The notes beneath the pieces were generated by a model. That model ran no database searches, had not been told where the DNA came from, and saw only the letters and a program-made list of their open reading frames with translations. From positions 2,317-66,316 of the forward strand of contig JAVBMD010000012.1 in the NCBI GenBank assembly GCA_031552825.1: a DNA stretch of 64,000 nucleotides, written 5' to 3'. This document shows, piece after piece, positions 56,360 to 63,985 of this stretch. Both the position numbers and the translations under genes were made by a program. Numbering within the stretch: the stretch's first letter is position 1; each line of letters opens with the position of its first letter. This DNA is from Eubacteriales bacterium (lineage in GTDB: Bacteria; Bacillota; Clostridia; Christensenellales; Aristaeellaceae).

Positions 56360-57109
56360 ATGGCGAAGAAGGTTCTGTTGGCCGGTGAATCCTGGAGCAG
56401 CTACACCACCCACGTCAAGGGCTTCGATTCCTTCTACACCTCGGTCTACGAGGAAGGCGCGGCCACCCTCATCGCCGCGCTGGAAAAGGGCGGCTTCGAT
56501 GTGACCTACCTGCCCAACCATCGCGCGGTACACGAGTTCCCCTTTACGGTGGAGGAACTGTTGAAGTACGACTGCGTGATCCTCTCCGACATCGGCTCCA
56601 ACACCCTGCTGCTGCACCCCGACGTGTTCTCCAAGAGCAAGCGCATCCCCAACCGCTGCCAAACGGTGCGCGACTACGTGCTGGCTGGCGGTTCGCTGCT
56701 GATGGTCGGCGGGTACATGGCGTTCAGCGGCGTGGATGCCAAGGCCAAGTATGGCCGCACCGCCATACAGGACGTGTTGCCGGTGAAGTGCCTCGACTAT
56801 GACGACCTGATGGAACACCCCGAAGGGCTGACCCCGGTGGTGGTGGCAAAGGATCACGCGTCGCTCAAGAACGTGCCCGCCAATTGGCCGCACTTCCTCG
56901 GCTACAACCGTACCGTCGCCCTGCCCGAGGGCGAGGTGGTGATGACCATCGACGGCGATCCGTTCATCGCGTTCCGCGATTGCGGCAAGGGCCGCGCCGG
57001 GATGTTCGGCTCCGATTGCGCGCCGCACTGGGGGCCGCCGGAGTTTGTGAGCTGGGAAGGCTATGATCCGCTGTGGCAGGGCATCGTGGGGTATTTGACG
57101 CGGAGCTAA
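56360..57109 (+). CDS. Class-I glutamine-amidotransferase-like (ThuA/DUF1355-like fold) protein, function unknown
   Basis: Start ATG 56360 (AAGGAGG upstream). The pattern KVLLAGESW...YDCVILSDIG...GGSLLMVGGY suggests a GATase1-like fold. The assignment is weak. Confidence 0.35.
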   Translation: MAKKVLLAGESWSSYTTHVKGFDSFYTSVYEEGAATLIAALEKGGFDVTYLPNHRAVHEFPFTVEELLKYDCVILSDIGSNTLLLHPDVFSKSKRIPNRCQTVRDYVLAGGSLLMVGGYMAFSGVDAKAKYGRTAIQDVLPVKCLDYDDLMEHPEGLTPVVVAKDHASLKNVPANWPHFLGYNRTVALPEGEVVMTIDGDPFIAFRDCGKGRAGMFGSDCAPHWGPPEFVSWEGYDPLWQGIVGYLTRS

Positions 57110-57146
57110 GGAGGCGCAAGCCTCCTGCCACTAGAAAGGAACGCCC

Positions 57147-58268
57147 ATGGAACAACTGCTCAATGACCTCCTGCGCATCCCCACCGCCAACCCGCCGGGC
57201 AACGAGCGCGCGCTGGCGACGTTCATCGCGGAGCACCTGCGCGATACGCCCTGCGAGGTATCCTGCCAAGACGTGGCCGAGGGGCGCGCAAATGTGACGG
57301 CCATCCTGCGCGGCAAATCGCGGGAAAACGCGCTGTTGCTGAACGGGCACTTGGATACCGTGCCCTTCGGCGCAGGCTGGGATACCGACCCCATCGAGCC
57401 AGTGCGGGACGGCGATTGGCTCCGCGCGCGCGGCGCAAGCGATATGAAGAGCGGGCTGGCGGCGATGCTGTACGCCTTCCGGCAGTTCGCGCTCGGCGGT
57501 AAGCAGCCGGAGCGCGACGTGATCTTCCTCGGCACTGCCGACGAGGAGGCCTACGGGCTTGGCGCGCACGCGGCGGGCAAGGCCGGGCTACTGGCGCACG
57601 TGGGCACCGCGATCATCGGCGAGCCCACTGGCAACCGCATCGGCGTCGCCTCCAAGGGCGTGCTGTGGCTCCAGGTGCAAGCGGCGGGGCGCACCTGCCA
57701 CGGCGCGTACCCGGATCGCGGCATCAACGCGGTGCGTCTGGCGGTCTCGCTGGCTGACGGCATCGAAAGCCTTTTGGCCGGGCAGCGTCACCCGCTGCTG
57801 GGGAATTCGACCTGTACCATCACGCAGATCAGCGGCGGCATCAAGATCAACATGGTGCCCGACGCCTGCGATATGCTGCTGGACATCCGCGCCACGCCGG
57901 GCGTGGATCAGGACGGACTGCTGCAGGACGCGCTGGGCCTAGCCGAAATGCTGGAGCGTGCGCACCCCGGCGCGCGCATAACCCTCACGGCGCTGACCAA
58001 CCGCCCGCCTGTGCTGGCCGAAGCGGACGGCGCAGCGGTGCGTCGGCTGGGCGAGATCGTGGGCGGCGTCACCGGAAGGCAGGCGGAGCATACCGGCACG
58101 GCGTTCTTCAGCGACGCGTCGGTGTTCTGCCGGTACAAGGCGGCGGAGTACATCCTGTTCGGCCCCGGGGAGAGCGATCAGGCGCATCAGCCCAACGAGC
58201 GGGTTTCTCTTGCGCAGTACCGGCAGGCGGTGGCGGTGTACCAACAGGTGCTGGCGGAGATGGCGTGA
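57147..58268 (+). CDS. M20-family metallohydrolase (ArgE/DapE-type), second paralog
   Basis: ..LLLNGHLDTVP.., ..RGASDMKSG.. and ..GTADEE.. motifs. Confidence 0.75.
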   Translation: MEQLLNDLLRIPTANPPGNERALATFIAEHLRDTPCEVSCQDVAEGRANVTAILRGKSRENALLLNGHLDTVPFGAGWDTDPIEPVRDGDWLRARGASDMKSGLAAMLYAFRQFALGGKQPERDVIFLGTADEEAYGLGAHAAGKAGLLAHVGTAIIGEPTGNRIGVASKGVLWLQVQAAGRTCHGAYPDRGINAVRLAVSLADGIESLLAGQRHPLLGNSTCTITQISGGIKINMVPDACDMLLDIRATPGVDQDGLLQDALGLAEMLERAHPGARITLTALTNRPPVLAEADGAAVRRLGEIVGGVTGRQAEHTGTAFFSDASVFCRYKAAEYILFGPGESDQAHQPNERVSLAQYRQAVAVYQQVLAEMA

Positions 58269-58285
58269 GCCTGCGATTGCATAAC

Positions 58286-58327
58286 AAAAAAAAACGATCT
58301 GTCGCAGTTGAGACGGATCGTTTTTTT
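58286..58327. terminator. Bidirectional terminator between the convergent LacI-nucleoside and BMC operons
   Basis: A-run, then stem AACGATC..GATCGTT, then T-run (AAAAAAAAACGATC...GATCGTTTTTTT). Confidence 0.6.
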
Positions 58328-58394
58328 GCGGAAATAACTGCGCGGTTATTGTGGTGCGTTTAGTGAACAGCAAGCGCAGCACCGTCTCACCCTT

Positions 58395-58658
58395 TCACAG
58401 TGTCTCCGGATCGATGATGCCCGCGATGGTCGTATCGCTTGGCGGCGGCGCTTCGCGGCCAAACATCAGGGCGGCTTCGGCGCGGCCGATCAGGTAGACG
58501 GTATCGCCGATACCGGCCTGCCGCGTGCCGTCGCAGGCAATAATCAGCCCTTTTTCCTCGCCGTTGATGAGCTGGCGAACCACCATGAGCTTGATGCCCT
58601 CCAGCGTCGGCGTTTTGACGGTGCAGACCACCGTGCCGACCACCCTGCCGATATTCAA
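58395..58658 (-). CDS. BMC-P (EutN/CcmL family) microcompartment vertex protein, paralog 4
   Basis: TTG start 58658 (GGGAGG 7 nt upstream). (L)NIGRVVGTVVCTVK...AGIGDTVYL. Confidence 0.8.
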   Translation of the reverse strand: MNIGRVVGTVVCTVKTPTLEGIKLMVVRQLINGEEKGLIIACDGTRQAGIGDTVYLIGRAEAALMFGREAPPPSDTTIAGIIDPETL

Positions 58659-58682
58659 AGCGCCGACCTCCCTTGGCATTTG

Positions 58683-58976
58683 CTACCCATGGCACCGCGT
58701 CGTCTTGCCCTGACAGGTAAACGAATCGACCACACCGCAGACCGTGACGCTGGCGATAAGGGTTTTATCGCCCATCACCATCTGCGCCGCGCCGCCGTCG
58801 TTGTTGATGAGCACGATATCGCCGATGCCCGCGTTGGCGGCGTCCAGCGCCACCACTTCCTCTCCGGCCTCGGCCAGCGACAGATCCAGCGGACGCACGC
58901 GGAGCATCTTCATGCCCCGGTAGCGTTCGTACTTGATGGTGGAAACCACTGTGCCGGTTACGCGCGCTAATTTCAT
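58683..58976 (-). CDS. BMC-P (EutN/CcmL family), paralog 3
   Basis: MKLARVTGTVVSTIK...DAANAGIGDIVLI. Confidence 0.85.
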   Translation of the reverse strand: MKLARVTGTVVSTIKYERYRGMKMLRVRPLDLSLAEAGEEVVALDAANAGIGDIVLINNDGGAAQMVMGDKTLIASVTVCGVVDSFTCQGKTTRCHG

Positions 58977-59284
58977 GGCACATCGACCGCCTTGGCTTTG
59001 TCATATTTGCGGGCGCCCAGAATGTCCACATAATCCACGATGCCGATGATGGTGCTGTCTACAGGCTTGCCGGTGGTCAGCTCGGTTTGGCGCGAGGAAC
59101 TGCCGCCTGCCCACATCACGATCTCGCCCACCCCCGCGCCCACCGTGTCCACGGTGACGAAGGGCGCGCCTTTCTCCTGCATGGTGTCCATATCGATGGG
59201 CACGGCGACCAGCAGCTTCAGCCCTTGAAGACGCTCGGATTTGCGCGTGCTCACCACGGAGCCGATTATTCTTGCCAGCTGCAT
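58973..59284 (-). CDS. BMC-P (EutN/CcmL family), paralog 2
   Basis: MQLARIIGSVVSTRK...DTVGAGVGEIVMW, with the C-terminal extension ..ARKYDKAKAVDVP. Confidence 0.85.
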   Translation of the reverse strand: MQLARIIGSVVSTRKSERLQGLKLLVAVPIDMDTMQEKGAPFVTVDTVGAGVGEIVMWAGGSSSRQTELTTGKPVDSTIIGIVDYVDILGARKYDKAKAVDVP

Positions 59285-59589
59285 GCGTTACGCTCCTTTG
59301 CCTTATCGTATGTCCGGACGCCGCGCATCTCGATGCTGTCCAGAATGGCGAAGATCGAGTAATCCGAAGCCACCTGCTTGCTGCTCTCGGTTTGCCGGGC
59401 GGAACTGCCGTAGGCGCACATCACCAAATCGCCCACGCCCGCGCCGATATCGTCCACGCAGACCACGTAATCGTCCTGCATGCCCAGCGTATCCAGCGCC
59501 ACCGGCTGCACGATGAGCAGCTTGGTGCCGGTCAGCGCGGCCACCTTGCTAGAGCTGACGACATTGCCGGTCACTCTGCCTACCAACAT
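59266..59589 (-). CDS. BMC-P (EutN/CcmL family), paralog 1
   Basis: Start ATG 59589 (GGAGGG upstream). MLVGRVTGNVVSSSK...DDIGAGVGDLVMC, with the C-terminal extension ..VRTYDKAKERN.. Confidence 0.85.
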   Translation of the reverse strand: MLVGRVTGNVVSSSKVAALTGTKLLIVQPVALDTLGMQDDYVVCVDDIGAGVGDLVMCAYGSSARQTESSKQVASDYSIFAILDSIEMRGVRTYDKAKERNACSWQE

Positions 59590-59614
59590 GCGTTTCCCTC
59601 CCCGCGGTGATTTT

Positions 59615-60634
59615 TCAATCGGCACGCATCGGCTGGGTGCTGCCGCGCACCACCAGCCGCCCCGCCAGCCGCACCCGCATGGTCGGCCAATCGGGATACT
59701 TGATGCGCCTGCGCAGCGTATCCACCGCCAGCTCGCCCATGGCCGAGCGGGAGATGTTCATCGTGGTCAGCGCGGGCATGGTCATCGCGCTGAAGGGGAT
59801 ATCGTCGACGCCGATGATCGATACATCTTCCGGGATGCGGTAGCCCGCTTCCTGAATCGCCTTCATCGCGCCGATGGCCACGGTGTCGTTATCAGCCACC
59901 AGCGCGCCGCAGGGCACATACTCCCTCGCCTCCAGCAGCCGCTTCATGTCCAGATAAGCGTCCTGCAGCGTGGGCATCACCGAAGCGGGCGGCGGCGGCG
60001 TCAGCCCCAGCTTCTCCATCTCGCGCAGGTAGCCTTGGTAGCGCTCCTGACAGTTGCGGATCGGCAGGCTAAAGCGGACATAGCCGATCGCACGGTGGCC
60101 AATGCTGTGCAGGTAGCGCACCGCCTCGGCGCTGATGGCCTCGTTGTCCATCACCACGCTATCGATGCGCATCTCGTTCATGCCGTTATCGAACACCACG
60201 GTAGGCACGGTAATCAGATCCAGCAGCTTGTAGTTGTTCTCGTTCAGCTCGGTACCCATCAGGATCACGCCGTCGGGCGGGGTAGCCATCAGCTCGCGCA
60301 GCGTCTCCTCGGCGGTGCTCTCCCTGCAGTTGACCATCGCCAGATCATAGCCGTAATGGCGGCACTTGCTCTCGATCTGGTCGATGATGGAAGCAATGAA
60401 GCCCTGATTTTCCTCGATGGCGATGCCGTGGGTGCAAAACTTGACCACGCACAGGCGGGAGCGCTTGCGCTTGGTGCTGCCGCGCTTATGCCCCGGCACG
60501 ATGTAGTGATTCGCCTCAATGACGGCCTGCACGCGCCGCCTTGTCTCCTCGCTGACACCCTTTTTGTTGTTGATGACCAGCGAAACCGCTGCCGGAGAGA
60601 CCCCTGCTAAGTTGGCAATTTCCCTGATCGTCAT
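59615..60634 (-). CDS. LacI family transcriptional regulator embedded in the BMC locus
   Basis: HTH MTIREIANLAGVSPAAVSLVINNK plus a sugar-binding fold. Confidence 0.85.
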   Translation of the reverse strand: MTIREIANLAGVSPAAVSLVINNKKGVSEETRRRVQAVIEANHYIVPGHKRGSTKRKRSRLCVVKFCTHGIAIEENQGFIASIIDQIESKCRHYGYDLAMVNCRESTAEETLRELMATPPDGVILMGTELNENNYKLLDLITVPTVVFDNGMNEMRIDSVVMDNEAISAEAVRYLHSIGHRAIGYVRFSLPIRNCQERYQGYLREMEKLGLTPPPPASVMPTLQDAYLDMKRLLEAREYVPCGALVADNDTVAIGAMKAIQEAGYRIPEDVSIIGVDDIPFSAMTMPALTTMNISRSAMGELAVDTLRRRIKYPDWPTMRVRLAGRLVVRGSTQPMRAD

Positions 60635-60689
60635 ATCGGTATCATCCGTCCTATTCTTTGACTACACGCGCTCGTGCAAACATTTTCTT

Positions 60690-60717
60690 GCTGCTCCCCG
60701 CTTCGCGGGGGAGCAGC
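60690..60717 (-). terminator. Hairpin directly after dhaL (copy C of the recurring hairpin family)
   Basis: GCTGCTCCCC / GCTTCGC / GGGGGAGCAGC. No clear U-tract. Confidence 0.4.
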
Positions 60718-60718
60718 T

Positions 60719-61345
60719 TCAATCATCGTTTACCGCGCGCACAAAGCCCTGCATCAGCAGTGCCGCCACCGCCGCACCCGGATCGAGGTATTCCCGCGAT
60801 TGCTCGCCGTGGATGGCCATGCGGCCGTGCTTGGCGAGCATGCCGCGCGTGGCGAGGAATGCGGCGTCGGCGGCATCGGCGGCGGCCTGCGCGGCCTTGG
60901 GCAGATCGCCTGACTGCGCCTGCAGGATCTGCACCGCCGGGTGCAGCCCGTCGAGAAAGGTTTTCTCGCCCAGCTGCGCCTTGCCCCGGGTCTGCACGGC
61001 GTCGTAATACCCTTGGAAGAAGGTCGCCCAGAAGGCACTTTCCGCCAGCTTGGCATCCTTCTCGGCGTCCTTGAGCGCTTTGGCCGCGCCCATCAGGCCG
61101 CTGGCCATCAGCGTGCCCATGGTGGAGGGTACGGCGGCGCCTATGGCCTTGCCCGCCGCGTAGATCAGCTTGGCGGCGTCGGTCTCCGGCGATTCGCGCA
61201 CGGCCTCGTAGGCGGCGCGAAAGCCGTCGGCCATGGTAAGGCCTAGGTCGCTATCCCCGACCATGCCGTCCAGCTCGATGAGGCGCTGTTTGTTTTCTTG
61301 CATGAGCTCCGCCCAGGTTTTAAGCAGCGTGCGGATTTCGGTCAT
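60719..61345 (-). CDS. dhaL: Dihydroxyacetone kinase subunit L (ADP-binding, Dak2 domain)
   Basis: ..LDGMVGDSDLGLTMADGF.. and the ..GTLMASGLMGAA.. Dak2 pattern. Confidence 0.8.
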   Translation of the reverse strand: MTEIRTLLKTWAELMQENKQRLIELDGMVGDSDLGLTMADGFRAAYEAVRESPETDAAKLIYAAGKAIGAAVPSTMGTLMASGLMGAAKALKDAEKDAKLAESAFWATFFQGYYDAVQTRGKAQLGEKTFLDGLHPAVQILQAQSGDLPKAAQAAADAADAAFLATRGMLAKHGRMAIHGEQSREYLDPGAAVAALLMQGFVRAVNDD

Positions 61346-61357
61346 GAACTGGCCTCC

Positions 61358-62374
61358 TTACAGCGCGAACTGCCGATAAAACGGCGTGTCGGCGGCAGCG
61401 GAAAGATACCGTTTGAGCTCGTCATCGACCTTGAGCAGCGAGATCGACGCACCGGCCATCTCCATCGAGGTGGCAAATTCGCCGATAAACGGGCGGAAAA
61501 CCTTGATGCCGCGCTGATCCAGCACCTGCTTCACGCGGCGGTACATCACGTACAGTTCCTCCGGCGGCGTCGCGCCCAAGCCGTTGATGAGCACCGCGAC
61601 CTCATCGCCCGCCGTGTAGGGCAGATCGCTAAGGATCGGCGCCAGCATCTCGTCGACGACGGCGTCTGCGGGTTGAATCTTGCCGCGCCGCACCCCCGGC
61701 TCGCCGTGGATGCCCATGCCGATCTCCATTTCGTCCTCGCCGATCTCAAAGCTGGGGCGGCCGACGCGCGGCACCGTGCAACTGAACAGCGCTACGCCCA
61801 TGGTACGCACATTGGCGCACACCTTGTCGGCCACGCGCTTGACGGCTTCCAGATCCGCGCCCTCGGCGGCGGCGGCGCCCGCGCACTTGAACACGAAGAA
61901 GATGCCCGCCACGCCGCGGCGCTTGTTGGCCTCGCCGGGCAGCGGCGCGGGGCCTGCCACATCCTCGCCCGCCACACAGGTCAGCGTGCGGATGCTCTCC
62001 TCAAAATCCGCCATCTCGGCGGCGCTGTCGAAGTTGAAGATGTCTCCGTTGTAGTTGCCGTAAATATAGAGCACGCCCGCGCCTTGGTCGATGTGCTTGG
62101 TCACGGCCAGAATTTGCTCGGCGCTGGGCGATTGGAACACGTCGCCGATGGCGCAGCCGTCGAGCATGCCCTCGCCCACGTAACCGAGAAACAGCGGCAG
62201 ATGACCGGAGCCGCCGCCGGTCATCAACCCGACCTTGCCCGCGTGGGTGCGCGCGCTGACCAGGCAATGAAGGTCTCCGTCCACGCAGGTCAACGCCTCG
62301 GAGTGCGCGGCGTAGATGCCCTCCAACATTTCCGGAACGAACCGCTCCGCGCTGTTCATGATCTTTTTCATCAT
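61358..62374 (-). CDS. dhaK: Dihydroxyacetone kinase subunit K (Dak1 domain)
   Basis: ..VGLMTGGGSGHLPLFLGYVGEGMLDGCAIGDVFQSPS.. is the canonical Dak1 motif. Confidence 0.85.
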   Translation of the reverse strand: MMKKIMNSAERFVPEMLEGIYAAHSEALTCVDGDLHCLVSARTHAGKVGLMTGGGSGHLPLFLGYVGEGMLDGCAIGDVFQSPSAEQILAVTKHIDQGAGVLYIYGNYNGDIFNFDSAAEMADFEESIRTLTCVAGEDVAGPAPLPGEANKRRGVAGIFFVFKCAGAAAAEGADLEAVKRVADKVCANVRTMGVALFSCTVPRVGRPSFEIGEDEMEIGMGIHGEPGVRRGKIQPADAVVDEMLAPILSDLPYTAGDEVAVLINGLGATPPEELYVMYRRVKQVLDQRGIKVFRPFIGEFATSMEMAGASISLLKVDDELKRYLSAAADTPFYRQFAL

Positions 62375-62392: not shown

Positions 62393-62818
62393 TTACAGAA
62401 CGCCCTTTTTCAAAATGATGCAAGCATACAGTGACCGCTCGCCGGTGGCCACGCAGGCATACGCCTTGCGCGCACGCTCATAGAAGGCGAAGCGCTCCAC
62501 CTGCTCGATCTGAACATTGGCCTGATGCTTATCCACGACCTCGCGGAACTCCCGCCAAATCGGCGGATCCCCGACGAGCGTGCCCGGCACCACTTGCATC
62601 AGCGACACCGGCGCCTCCACAAAATTATCCAGCGGGAACAGGCTAAGTACCGCGTCCAGCAGCGCGACGCCACCGTGCCCGTCCTCGCGGACGCAGCGCT
62701 GCCCCATGCTCTGCGCAGGGAAGTTGGCATCGCCAATAACCAACTCGTCGCCATGCCCCATCTCGGCCAGAATCTTGAGCAGCTCCGGCGAAATCAGAGG
62801 CGAAATTCCTTTTAGCAT
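62393..62818 (-). CDS. RbsD/FucU family sugar mutarotase/pyranase
   Basis: Start ATG 62818 (GAGGAGGAA upstream). MLKGISPLISPELLKILAEMGHGDELVIGDANFP is the typical FucU/RbsD N-terminus. Confidence 0.8.
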   Translation of the reverse strand: MLKGISPLISPELLKILAEMGHGDELVIGDANFPAQSMGQRCVREDGHGGVALLDAVLSLFPLDNFVEAPVSLMQVVPGTLVGDPPIWREFREVVDKHQANVQIEQVERFAFYERARKAYACVATGERSLYACIILKKGVL

Positions 62819-63028: not shown

Positions 63029-63304
63029 TTACGCCTTGGGCAGAATCGCTTCCACATCATCATGCGGACGCGGGATCACATGTACGCTCACCAGCTCGCC
63101 CACGCGCTTGGCCGCCAAGCTGCCTGCTTCCACCGCCGCCTTGACCGCGCCAACATCGCCGCGCACCATGACGCTCACCAGACCGCCGCCCACGTGCTCC
63201 TTGCCGATCAAGTGTACGTTCGCGGCCTTGACCATCGCGTCCGCCGCCTCAATCGAGGCCACCAGCCCCTTCGTTTCCACCATACCCAATGCCTGCTTCT
63301 CCAT
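63029..63304 (-). CDS. BMC-H shell protein (PduA/EutM type, Pfam00936-like)
   Basis: [26 protein letters not shown]...[23 protein letters not shown]. Confidence 0.9.
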
Positions 63305-63327: not shown

Positions 63328-63630
63328 TTACGCCTTGCTCTTTGCTACCTTTGCCGCCGGATCACCGGGCAGCACGCCCTCCACGTCGCCGTGGGGACGC
63401 GGGATCACGTGTACGCTGACCAGCTCGCCCACGCGCTTGGCCGCTAGGCTGCCAGCTTCCACCGCCGCCTTGACCGCGCCCACATCGCCGCGCACCATCA
63501 CTGTTACCAACCCGCCGCCCACGTGCTCCTTGCCGAGCAAGTGAACGTTGGCGGCCTTCACCATGGCATCCGCCGCCTCAATGGCGGCCACCAGGCCGCG
63601 GGTTTCGATCATGCCCAAAGCTTCCTGCAT
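63328..63630 (-). CDS. BMC-H shell protein, tandem near-duplicate
   Basis: Start ATG 63630 (AGGAG upstream). [26 protein letters not shown]... differs at 5 residues over about 77 core positions from the neighbouring copy. Confidence 0.9.
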
Positions 63631-63706: not shown

Positions 63707-63985
63707 CTAGAGCAAAGCTTCCACTATATCCCGATGGGGCGAGGGGATCACCACGCTGGATCCGATCAGCCCCTTGGAATCCTCGTTTGCCTCGACGGCC
63801 TGCACCGCCGCCTCCACCGCCGAAACCTGCCCCGTGAAGATCACGAAGGACTTGCCGCCCAGCCCGCGCCCCAAGCGCACCTCGATCAGCTCAACCGCCG
63901 CCGTCTTAACGGCGATATCGGCGGCACTGATGCTGCTGGCCAGCGAAAAAGTTTCGATCAGCCCCAGCGCCTGCGCACCCTCCAC
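63707..63985 (-). CDS. Divergent BMC-H-like shell protein (start uncertain; frame stays open to the window edge)
   Basis: (V)[33 protein letters not shown]...[20 protein letters not shown] matches the BMC domain pattern. The start is GTG at 63985, or the protein is longer (possibly tandem-domain) and continues beyond 64000. Confidence 0.65.

Follow-up and report, generated by a model that had tools for sequence, protein, structure and literature searches.

Four tandem BMC-P genes at the end of a clostridial microcompartment operon: probably a known vertex protein triplet with one extra paralog

Introduction

Why should a bacterial microcompartment (BMC) operon end in four different genes for pentameric vertex proteins (BMC-P)? 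The question is raised by a 64,000-nt stretch of DNA from a Eubacteriales bacterium (Christensenellales; Aristaeellaceae), namely positions 2,317 to 66,316 of the forward strand of contig JAVBMD010000012.1 (GenBank assembly GCA_031552825.1), which is referred to in its whole length as the window. Four consecutive minus-strand open reading frames (ORFs) located at window positions 58395-59589, here designated P1 to P4 in the order of transcription, encode proteins of the EutN/CcmL family. A first-pass annotation, made from the sequence alone, regarded the presence of four distinct BMC-P genes as exceptional and proposed that a C-terminal tail found in two of them might serve as a special docking appendage. 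The analysis described here indicates, with a probability of about 0.72, that the P1-P4 cassette corresponds to a published BMC-P triplet to which one extra paralog has been added.

Organization of the BMC-P cassette

P1 (59589..59266, 107 aa), P2 (59284..58973, 103 aa) and P3 (58976..58683, 97 aa) all start with ATG, that of P1 having GGAGGG upstream, and P4 (58658..58395, 87 aa) starts with TTG, with the sequence AAGGGAGG located 8 nt upstream. A mechanical ORF call would begin P4 at an ATG at 58679 and give 94 aa; the 87-aa form is supported because the position of its start codon is kept in 30 orthologs (TTG in 23, ATG in 7) and because an independent gene call on an 8-kb Logan contig, which covers the downstream side of the locus, likewise yields 87 aa. 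P1 and P2 overlap by 19 nt, P2 and P3 share an ATGA overlap, and P3 and P4 are separated by a gap of 24 nt. The ORF coordinates, lengths and tight coupling described in the first-pass annotation were thus all recovered, as was the position of the four genes as the last of the BMC operon. A promoter and terminator scan of positions 58100-60900 gave no signal above that of shuffled sequences.

All four products match the EutN/CcmL profile PF03319 over its full length (profile positions 1-83 or 2-83), with scores of 83.2, 97.2, 71.7 and 63.4 bits for P1, P2, P3 and P4, respectively, against a gathering cutoff of 25 bits, so that the profile search upholds the family assignment. The N-terminal motif and the central G-x-G-(D/E) motif are present in all four proteins and the R-x-Y-D-K-A-K tail in P1 and P2, as originally described. 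Pairwise identity among the paralogs is 32-43%, the closest pair being P1 and P2 (43%). A recent tandem duplication is excluded because of this divergence, in agreement with the earlier reading, and P1-P4 are genuine, old and diverged BMC-P paralogs.

Conservation in related loci

A scan of species-representative genomes returned 35 loci, mostly from metagenome-assembled genomes (MAGs) named Candidatus Limiplasma, Clostridiales or Eubacteriales, and 32 of these belong to the quartet family. Whether relatives conserve all four genes, a point left to be checked by the first-pass annotation, can be answered from this set: P1, P2, P3 and P4 occur in the same order in 29 of the 32 species-level genome loci, at 69-93% identity, and six further quartet loci were found on metagenome contigs. 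The three loci that do not contain the full quartet are a contig that ends after P1/P2, a MAG locus (L018) considered below, and a short contig with a different layout (L032). The 19-nt overlap of P1 and P2 is kept in 32 of 32 loci and the ATGA overlap in 29 of 30, and the P3-P4 gap measures 10-33 nt in 29 of 30 loci (225 nt in the remaining one). Throughout the related loci (L001-L041) the constant elements are the four BMC-P genes and a gene for a LacI-family regulator, which directly precedes P1 in every case.

The lengths of the paralogs are nearly fixed across orthologs, and the ratio of nonsynonymous to synonymous change (dN/dS) is 0.10-0.13 for P1, P3 and P4 (0.13 for both P1 and P3); for P2, pN is 0.108 and pS 0.538. 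Because the cassette, its overlaps and the protein lengths are conserved and dN/dS is near 0.1, P1-P4 are to be regarded as maintained genes under purifying selection and not as decaying copies; the pseudogene reading was rejected on the basis of these ratios. A reduced locus in Bacillota bacterium Meth-B3 (L035; 738-11187) comprises MtnK, MtnA, acylating aldehyde dehydrogenase (AldDh), one BMC-H, FucU and LacI genes and lacks PduL, PduS and BMC-T, yet it keeps all four BMC-P genes.

Evolutionary relationships of the paralogs

A metagenome scan with a P3 profile detected many more distant loci, at 45-53% identity. Where enough sequence was available, these loci encode exactly three BMC-P proteins in a fixed layout: one gene lies upstream, at a distance of mostly about 4 kb, and the other two are adjacent or split by one BMC-H gene. 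In all 17 full-triplet loci the orthologs of P3 and P4 are adjacent or one BMC-H gene apart, and the upstream third member groups with P2. A neighbour-joining tree was built from 98 BMC-P sequences after removal of redundancy (95 columns, 100 bootstraps). In this tree the last member of the triplets clusters with P3 (98%), their middle member with P4 (86%) and their upstream member with P2 (86%). Sequence comparison thus identifies P3 and P4 as orthologs of the two BMC-P proteins that invariably occur jointly in triplet loci, and P2, which carries the canonical GAG(E/V)GE motif, as the ortholog of the third, CcmL/HO-type pentamer of SPU4-like triplets, HO denoting the BMC-P of Haliangium ochraceum (Protein Data Bank, PDB, entry 5V74).

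P1 forms a clade of its own together with one Christensenellaceae sequence (92%), and P1 and P2 are not recovered as exclusive sisters (0%). Mean identity to the third members of the triplets is 58% for P2 and 43% for P1. Among 1.84 billion representative proteins, P1 matches at E ≤ 1e-30 fall into two clusters, and the next-best full-length matches are about 52% identical. By these sequence relationships P1 is a narrow, fast-evolving and lineage-restricted extra copy, a duplicate of a P2-type gene in Christensenellales-like Clostridia. The Christensenellaceae contig L032 bears on how the copy arose. Its gene order is PduL, P1-like, P2-like, AldDh, PduS, BMC-T, so that the P1-like/P2-like pair occupies the slot between PduL and AldDh that holds the single third member in triplet loci; because the pair sits there, L032 points to a tandem duplication of P1 and P2 at the PduL-AldDh site. 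In the Limiplasma-type loci, all four BMC-P genes would have been gathered at the operon end later.

Relation to catalogued BMC loci

In the 2021 catalog of Sutter et al. (PMC8217296), which comprises about 4,900 BMC-P sequences, BMC loci contain a mean of 1.7 BMC-P genes, chiefly as one or three paralogs, and this multiplicity was termed unexpected. A triplet consists of one member of the grey clade, one of the orange clade and one more that belongs to either the green, the blue or the purple clade, and the grey and orange pair is carried by SPU loci. SPU2, MUF2 and MIC4 are triplet-plus-one locus types, the additional gene being a purple copy in most MUF2 loci and, sometimes, a green copy in MIC4; a fourth BMC-P is found occasionally in ACI, and MIC3 has five (PMC8217296). 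Since triplets, triplets with extra copies and a set of five were already on record (PMC8217296), the claim that a set of four is novel does not hold. With the triplet and triplet-plus-one loci the P1-P4 cassette shares three or more different BMC-P proteins, a co-occurring pair and a third member of the basic type, and an extra copy of the basic type brings the number to four. It differs from the known triplet-plus-one loci in that the genes overlap in a single tandem array, which follows a LacI gene and ends the operon, in that the additional copy, P1, has diverged strongly (43% identical to P2) and belongs to a narrow clade of its own, and in that the host locus matches none of SPU2, MUF2 and MIC4. 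What is new here is therefore a triplet-plus-one set in a single tandem cassette, within an apparently new locus type.

The nearest relatives of P2, P3 and P4 are encoded by SPU4, a type found in Firmicutes that has a BMC-P triplet, two similar BMC-H proteins and a PduS-associated BMC-T in 14 loci (PMC8217296). The quartet loci and SPU4 have in common the AldDh, PduS and 181-aa BMC-T block, two similar basal BMC-H proteins and PTAC. SPU4 is, however, defined by DeoC (PF01791) and RpiB (PF02502) (PMC8217296; PMC11585597), neither of which occurs in the window or within the operons of the 37 quartet loci. In the catalog's BMC-P tree, third members of SPU4 are labelled heather1_spu4like, and an SPU4 locus of the Christensenellaceae R-7 group has two adjacent heather1_spu4like BMC-P proteins, of 100 and 106 aa, near a 181-aa BMC-T, with the 106-aa protein on a long branch (PMC8217296). 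The adjacent R-7 pair looks like the P2/P1 pair.

Two further comparisons place the cassette. The HO BMC-P (5V74) and CcmL (4JW0, 4N8X, 6OWF) provide the best sequence and structure matches, and each is the sole pentamer in the shells solved so far; in contrast to them, the paired grey/orange-type members (P3, P4) and the P1-type tail have no structural representative. CsoS4A and CsoS4B of the alpha-carboxysome are likewise BMC-P paralogs that co-occur obligately and have neighbouring genes, but they are two genes and not four, belong to another clade, show weak similarity (E 1e-4 to 1e-5) and serve an anabolic organelle.

Fold and C-terminal region

Structure was modelled for P1 alone, the fold of P2-P4 being assigned from the Pfam match and PDB sequence hits. 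An AlphaFold (AF2) model of P1 computed from a mixed-paralog alignment has a pLDDT of 83.4 and a pTM of 0.77; an alignment of close P1 orthologs alone had given a pLDDT of 51. In Foldseek searches with this model, the 47 best matches (all E ≤ 0.01, the best 46 E ≤ 0.001) were BMC-P chains. Template modelling (TM) scores against CcmL, EutN and the HO BMC-P are 0.77-0.80 by query length and 0.85-0.89 by target length, with 95-100 of 107 residues aligned and superposition extending to about residue 98-100; for the HO BMC-P and CcmL the corresponding values are 0.77-0.80 and 0.85-0.87 over 94-100 columns, which include the C-terminal hairpin. The best PDB sequence match of P1 is the H. ochraceum pentamer 5V74 (E 2e-15, 42% identity).

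Residues 85-95 of P1, which contain the tail highlighted by the first-pass annotation, are modelled as a beta-hairpin. The alignment of P1 with CcmL (6OWF) continues through R-T-Y-D-K, for which the CcmL counterpart is RRLYGE, and triplet loci, too, have an R-x-[YF]-[DE]-K stretch in their third BMC-P (GKRVFEK, GAVAYDK). Because the hairpin can be superposed on CcmL, EutN and the HO pentamer and the third triplet members share the stretch, the YDKAK tail is, as judged from the model, the hairpin with which long-form BMC-P proteins normally end, and its designation as a special appendage is not supported. In P2 the conserved part of the tail is confined to G-x-R-x-Y-d-K. The conserved C-terminus of P1 reads R-T-Y-D-K-A-K-E-x-x-a-C-s-W, and just its last approximately eight residues (E-x-x-a-C-s-W) go beyond the common fold; the ends of P3 and P4 are shorter or different.

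Cysteines recur in these terminal regions. In P1 orthologs C44, C58, C103 and W105 are invariant (the C-terminus corresponding to window positions 59266-59295), C103 and W105 being invariant in 42 sequences. The tail of P3 orthologs (58683-58730) keeps C80, C95 and H96, and often C88, and more distant P3-like proteins do not have the tail cysteines. Because the locus also encodes a PduS/PduT-like pair, it is conceivable that the conserved residues of P1 and P3 have a metal or redox function.

In solved shells, BMC-P has a docking loop whose acidic residue is paired with Arg in the (A/P)RPH motif of BMC-H, and a Gly of this loop is in contact with the KAA lysine (PMC13370225). All four paralogs retain both the G-x-G-(D/E) loop and the (I/V)(I/V/L)D motif; the acidic residue is present in 124 of the 128 sequences of orthologs, and among the four exceptions two failed the search pattern entirely. 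Both BMC-H genes of the window carry the KAAN and PRPH interface motifs. Since the docking motifs are retained and the partner BMC-H proteins have KAAN and PRPH, each paralog is plausibly capable of vertex function.

Possible roles and alternative explanations

According to the favoured interpretation, the four ORFs would be functional, translationally coupled shell vertex genes that close a metabolosome operon at its 3′ end, and each product could in principle be seated in a five-fold vertex. Beyond the identity, conservation, orthology and fold of the proteins, a division of labour among them may be envisaged in which P2 acts as the main cap, P3 and P4 perform a still-unknown job common to all triplet BMCs, and P1 provides a lineage-specific vertex variant with about eight conserved extra residues. 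Heterogeneous vertices, several shell types and a control of shell size are all possible outcomes of such an arrangement.

Several points count against the interpretation of the cassette as a triplet plus one extra copy. A vertex role of P1-P4 in shells is predicted from sequence and from the P1 model. That P3 and P4 correspond to the catalog's grey and orange clades is deduced by way of orthology to SPU4-like triplets and not by direct clade assignment, and the placement of P1 relative to the HO BMC-P and CcmL has 39-46% support in the neighbour-joining tree. DBX46_00425 is counted as a probable P1 ortholog from length, adjacency, taxon and long branch only. In the MAG locus L018 (10600-11400), unrelated sequence begins immediately after P1 and P2, and P3 and P4 are missing from the site, which may reflect either a real loss or an assembly join. 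Finally, the window ends inside the BMC-T gene, and the enzyme set upstream of that gene is known from relatives.

The conservation of the cassette could also be explained if P1-P4 co-assemble into hetero-pentamers, giving one composite vertex in place of four kinds of homopentamer. Strict translational coupling and a fixed gene order would favour co-translational assembly at fixed ratios, and the same core fold signature and docking motifs are present in all four proteins. Against this, the paralogs are just 32-43% identical to each other, and the third member in SPU4-like loci is located about 4 kb from the pair, so that full coupling is not ancestral. The solved BMC-P matches are, moreover, entries of single-protein pentamers. 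So far as is known, solved BMC-P proteins, including those in intact shells, are homopentamers. Composite vertices are consequently considered unlikely. Slightly less probable still is a specialization of the vertices through the R-x-Y-D-K-A-K tail of P1 and P2, which would dock cargo or the cytoskeleton. The tail is conserved, to the point of invariance at C103 and W105 of P1, and Strep-tagged HO BMC-P pulls down assembled shells, implying that part of a BMC-P can be reached from outside (PMC6962350). In the P1 model, however, the hairpin is shared with CcmL, EutN and the HO BMC-P, the presence of the motif in third triplet members and its alignment with RRLYGE of CcmL mark it as an ancestral part of the fold, and with P2 retaining only the shortened motif, what is truly extra amounts to the terminal residues of P1.

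The least probable explanation is that one or more of the copies are redundant or decaying and have no role of their own. An icosahedral shell needs only 12 pentamers, and the L018 site does without P3 and P4. About 30 species, however, possess an intact copy of each paralog, the lengths being fixed, the starts conserved and dN/dS near 0.1, and the Meth-B3 locus has held on to the entire quartet after losing PduL, PduS and BMC-T; redundancy is strongly disfavoured by these observations. A triplet complemented by one extra, maintained paralog thus continues to be the preferred interpretation.

Genomic context

Upstream of P1 on the minus strand lies the LacI-family gene (59615..60634; PF00356 and Peripla_BP_3), the stop codon of which is 25 nt before P1. 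It is preceded by genes for two dihydroxyacetone-kinase-family subunits, DhaL (60719-61345; PF02734) and DhaK (61358-62374; PF02733), both with NCBIfam scores under the equivalog cutoffs, and by a gene for a FucU/RbsD-family mutarotase (62393..62818; PF05025) that scores 151 bits with the L-fucose mutarotase equivalog NF011949 (cutoff 141 bits). Two near-identical BMC-H genes follow, also on the minus strand (63029-63304 and 63328-63627; PF00936 at 101 and 105 bits), and a minus-strand frame at 63707..64000, open to base 64000 and cut by the window end, encodes the C-terminal domain of a tandem, PduT-like BMC-T. This frame is 84% identical to the second domain of the 181-aa two-domain BMC-T of a related locus (L015), a protein encoded after a PduS-like gene in relatives. 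Of the three upstream BMC-H genes counted by the first-pass annotation, two are hence BMC-H genes and the other is the C-terminal half of a BMC-T gene with tandem domains. Apart from these and P1-P4, no BMC genes were found elsewhere in the 64-kb window.

Downstream of P4 the locus is ended by a convergent M20 peptidase gene. The plus-strand block at 49271-58268, which converges on the BMC operon, encodes a BMP-family ABC transporter (binding protein, ATPase and two permeases), an inosine-uridine-type nucleoside hydrolase, two M20 peptidases and a GATase1-like protein. A second LacI-family gene (48219-49205, plus strand), located just upstream of the ABC transporter operon, encodes a protein 28% identical to the LacI protein of the BMC operon. 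Such a nucleoside uptake and cleavage block could supply sugars derived from 5′-deoxynucleosides to a locus of the MtnK/MtnA type; in the related locus L001 the neighbourhood differs from this block.

Enzyme content of the host locus

The full locus, as seen in relatives, encodes MtnK, MtnA, PduL, AldDh, a PduS-like protein, BMC-T, two BMC-H proteins, optionally FucU, optionally DhaK and DhaL, LacI and P1-P4. One full related locus lies at 880478-900798 of OY776489.1. The MtnK to PduS-like segment spans positions 1-6005 in L001 and 615-7595 in L015 and is similar in 30 other related loci. MtnK and MtnA are matched in the relatives by their equivalog models (TIGR01767, 415 bits against a cutoff of 275; TIGR00512, 414 bits against 279), and AldDh was found in all relatives with enough upstream sequence, the window stopping before the corresponding part. 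FucU is missing in seven loci (L006, L008, L027-L031); neither DhaK nor DhaL was found in nine (e.g., L004, L015, L023), and two more have DhaL only.

When two SPU DeoC proteins and RpiB of Escherichia coli were used in tblastn searches, no match was obtained in the window or within 37 quartet loci, and the sole matches near quartets lie outside the operon, about 8.8 kb (L018) and 1.7 kb (L002) past the last BMC-P gene. DeoC/RpiB matches are present in essentially every triplet locus of sufficient length, and DeoC adjoins the P3-like gene in all of those sampled; the triplet relative L105, for example, has the order SorC regulator, DeoC, BMC-H, PTAC, BMC-P, AldDh, PduS, BMC-T (181 aa), BMC-H, P4-like, BMC-H, P3-like, DeoC. 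Because DeoC and RpiB are absent within the quartet operons, the host locus is not SPU by definition, and membership in that class was rejected. A dihydroxyacetone phosphate shunt, in which MtnK, MtnA and a class II aldolase are encoded together, is not matched either: no class II aldolase gene was found in the window, and L035 is the one relative in which such a gene was seen, located about 3 kb upstream of its operon. PF01008 is not included in the profile table of the catalog, and a search of the accessible literature for BMCs linked to MtnK, MtnA or methylthioribose returned nothing relevant, one match describing an adjacent mtnK as unrelated.

From its gene content the host locus appears to be SPU4-derived by its shell and seemingly uncatalogued. 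A more far-reaching proposal is that Candidatus Limiplasma and other Christensenellales possess an uncatalogued metabolosome in which DeoC and RpiB of an SPU4-derived shell system have been swapped for MtnK, MtnA, FucU and sometimes DhaKL, suggesting a 5-deoxypentose, methylthioribose or deoxyhexose route through an aldose-1-phosphate, and in which P1, gained along with this exchange, is a fourth and specialized vertex protein whose conserved Cys/Trp C-terminus points outward and confers a distinct role on some of the vertices. Taken as a whole this proposal is tentative and somewhat improbable, if less so than the alternatives weighed above.

Concluding remarks

The reason for BMC-P paralogs "remains unknown" according to a 2024 study of SPU loci (PMC11585597), and their multiplicity is likewise left open in the catalog (PMC8217296). 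The P1-P4 cassette leaves this question unanswered but offers a compact test case, with four short co-transcribed genes, clear orthology to a triplet plus an extra copy, conservation in numerous Clostridia from guts and digesters, and a shell neighbourhood limited to two BMC-H genes and one BMC-T gene. As a useful example of a known pattern, the cassette is of less interest than the locus that contains it, which suggests the re-use of a BMC shell with new enzymes, MtnK and MtnA taking the place of DeoC and RpiB; if confirmed, such re-use would add a new functional type to the catalog.

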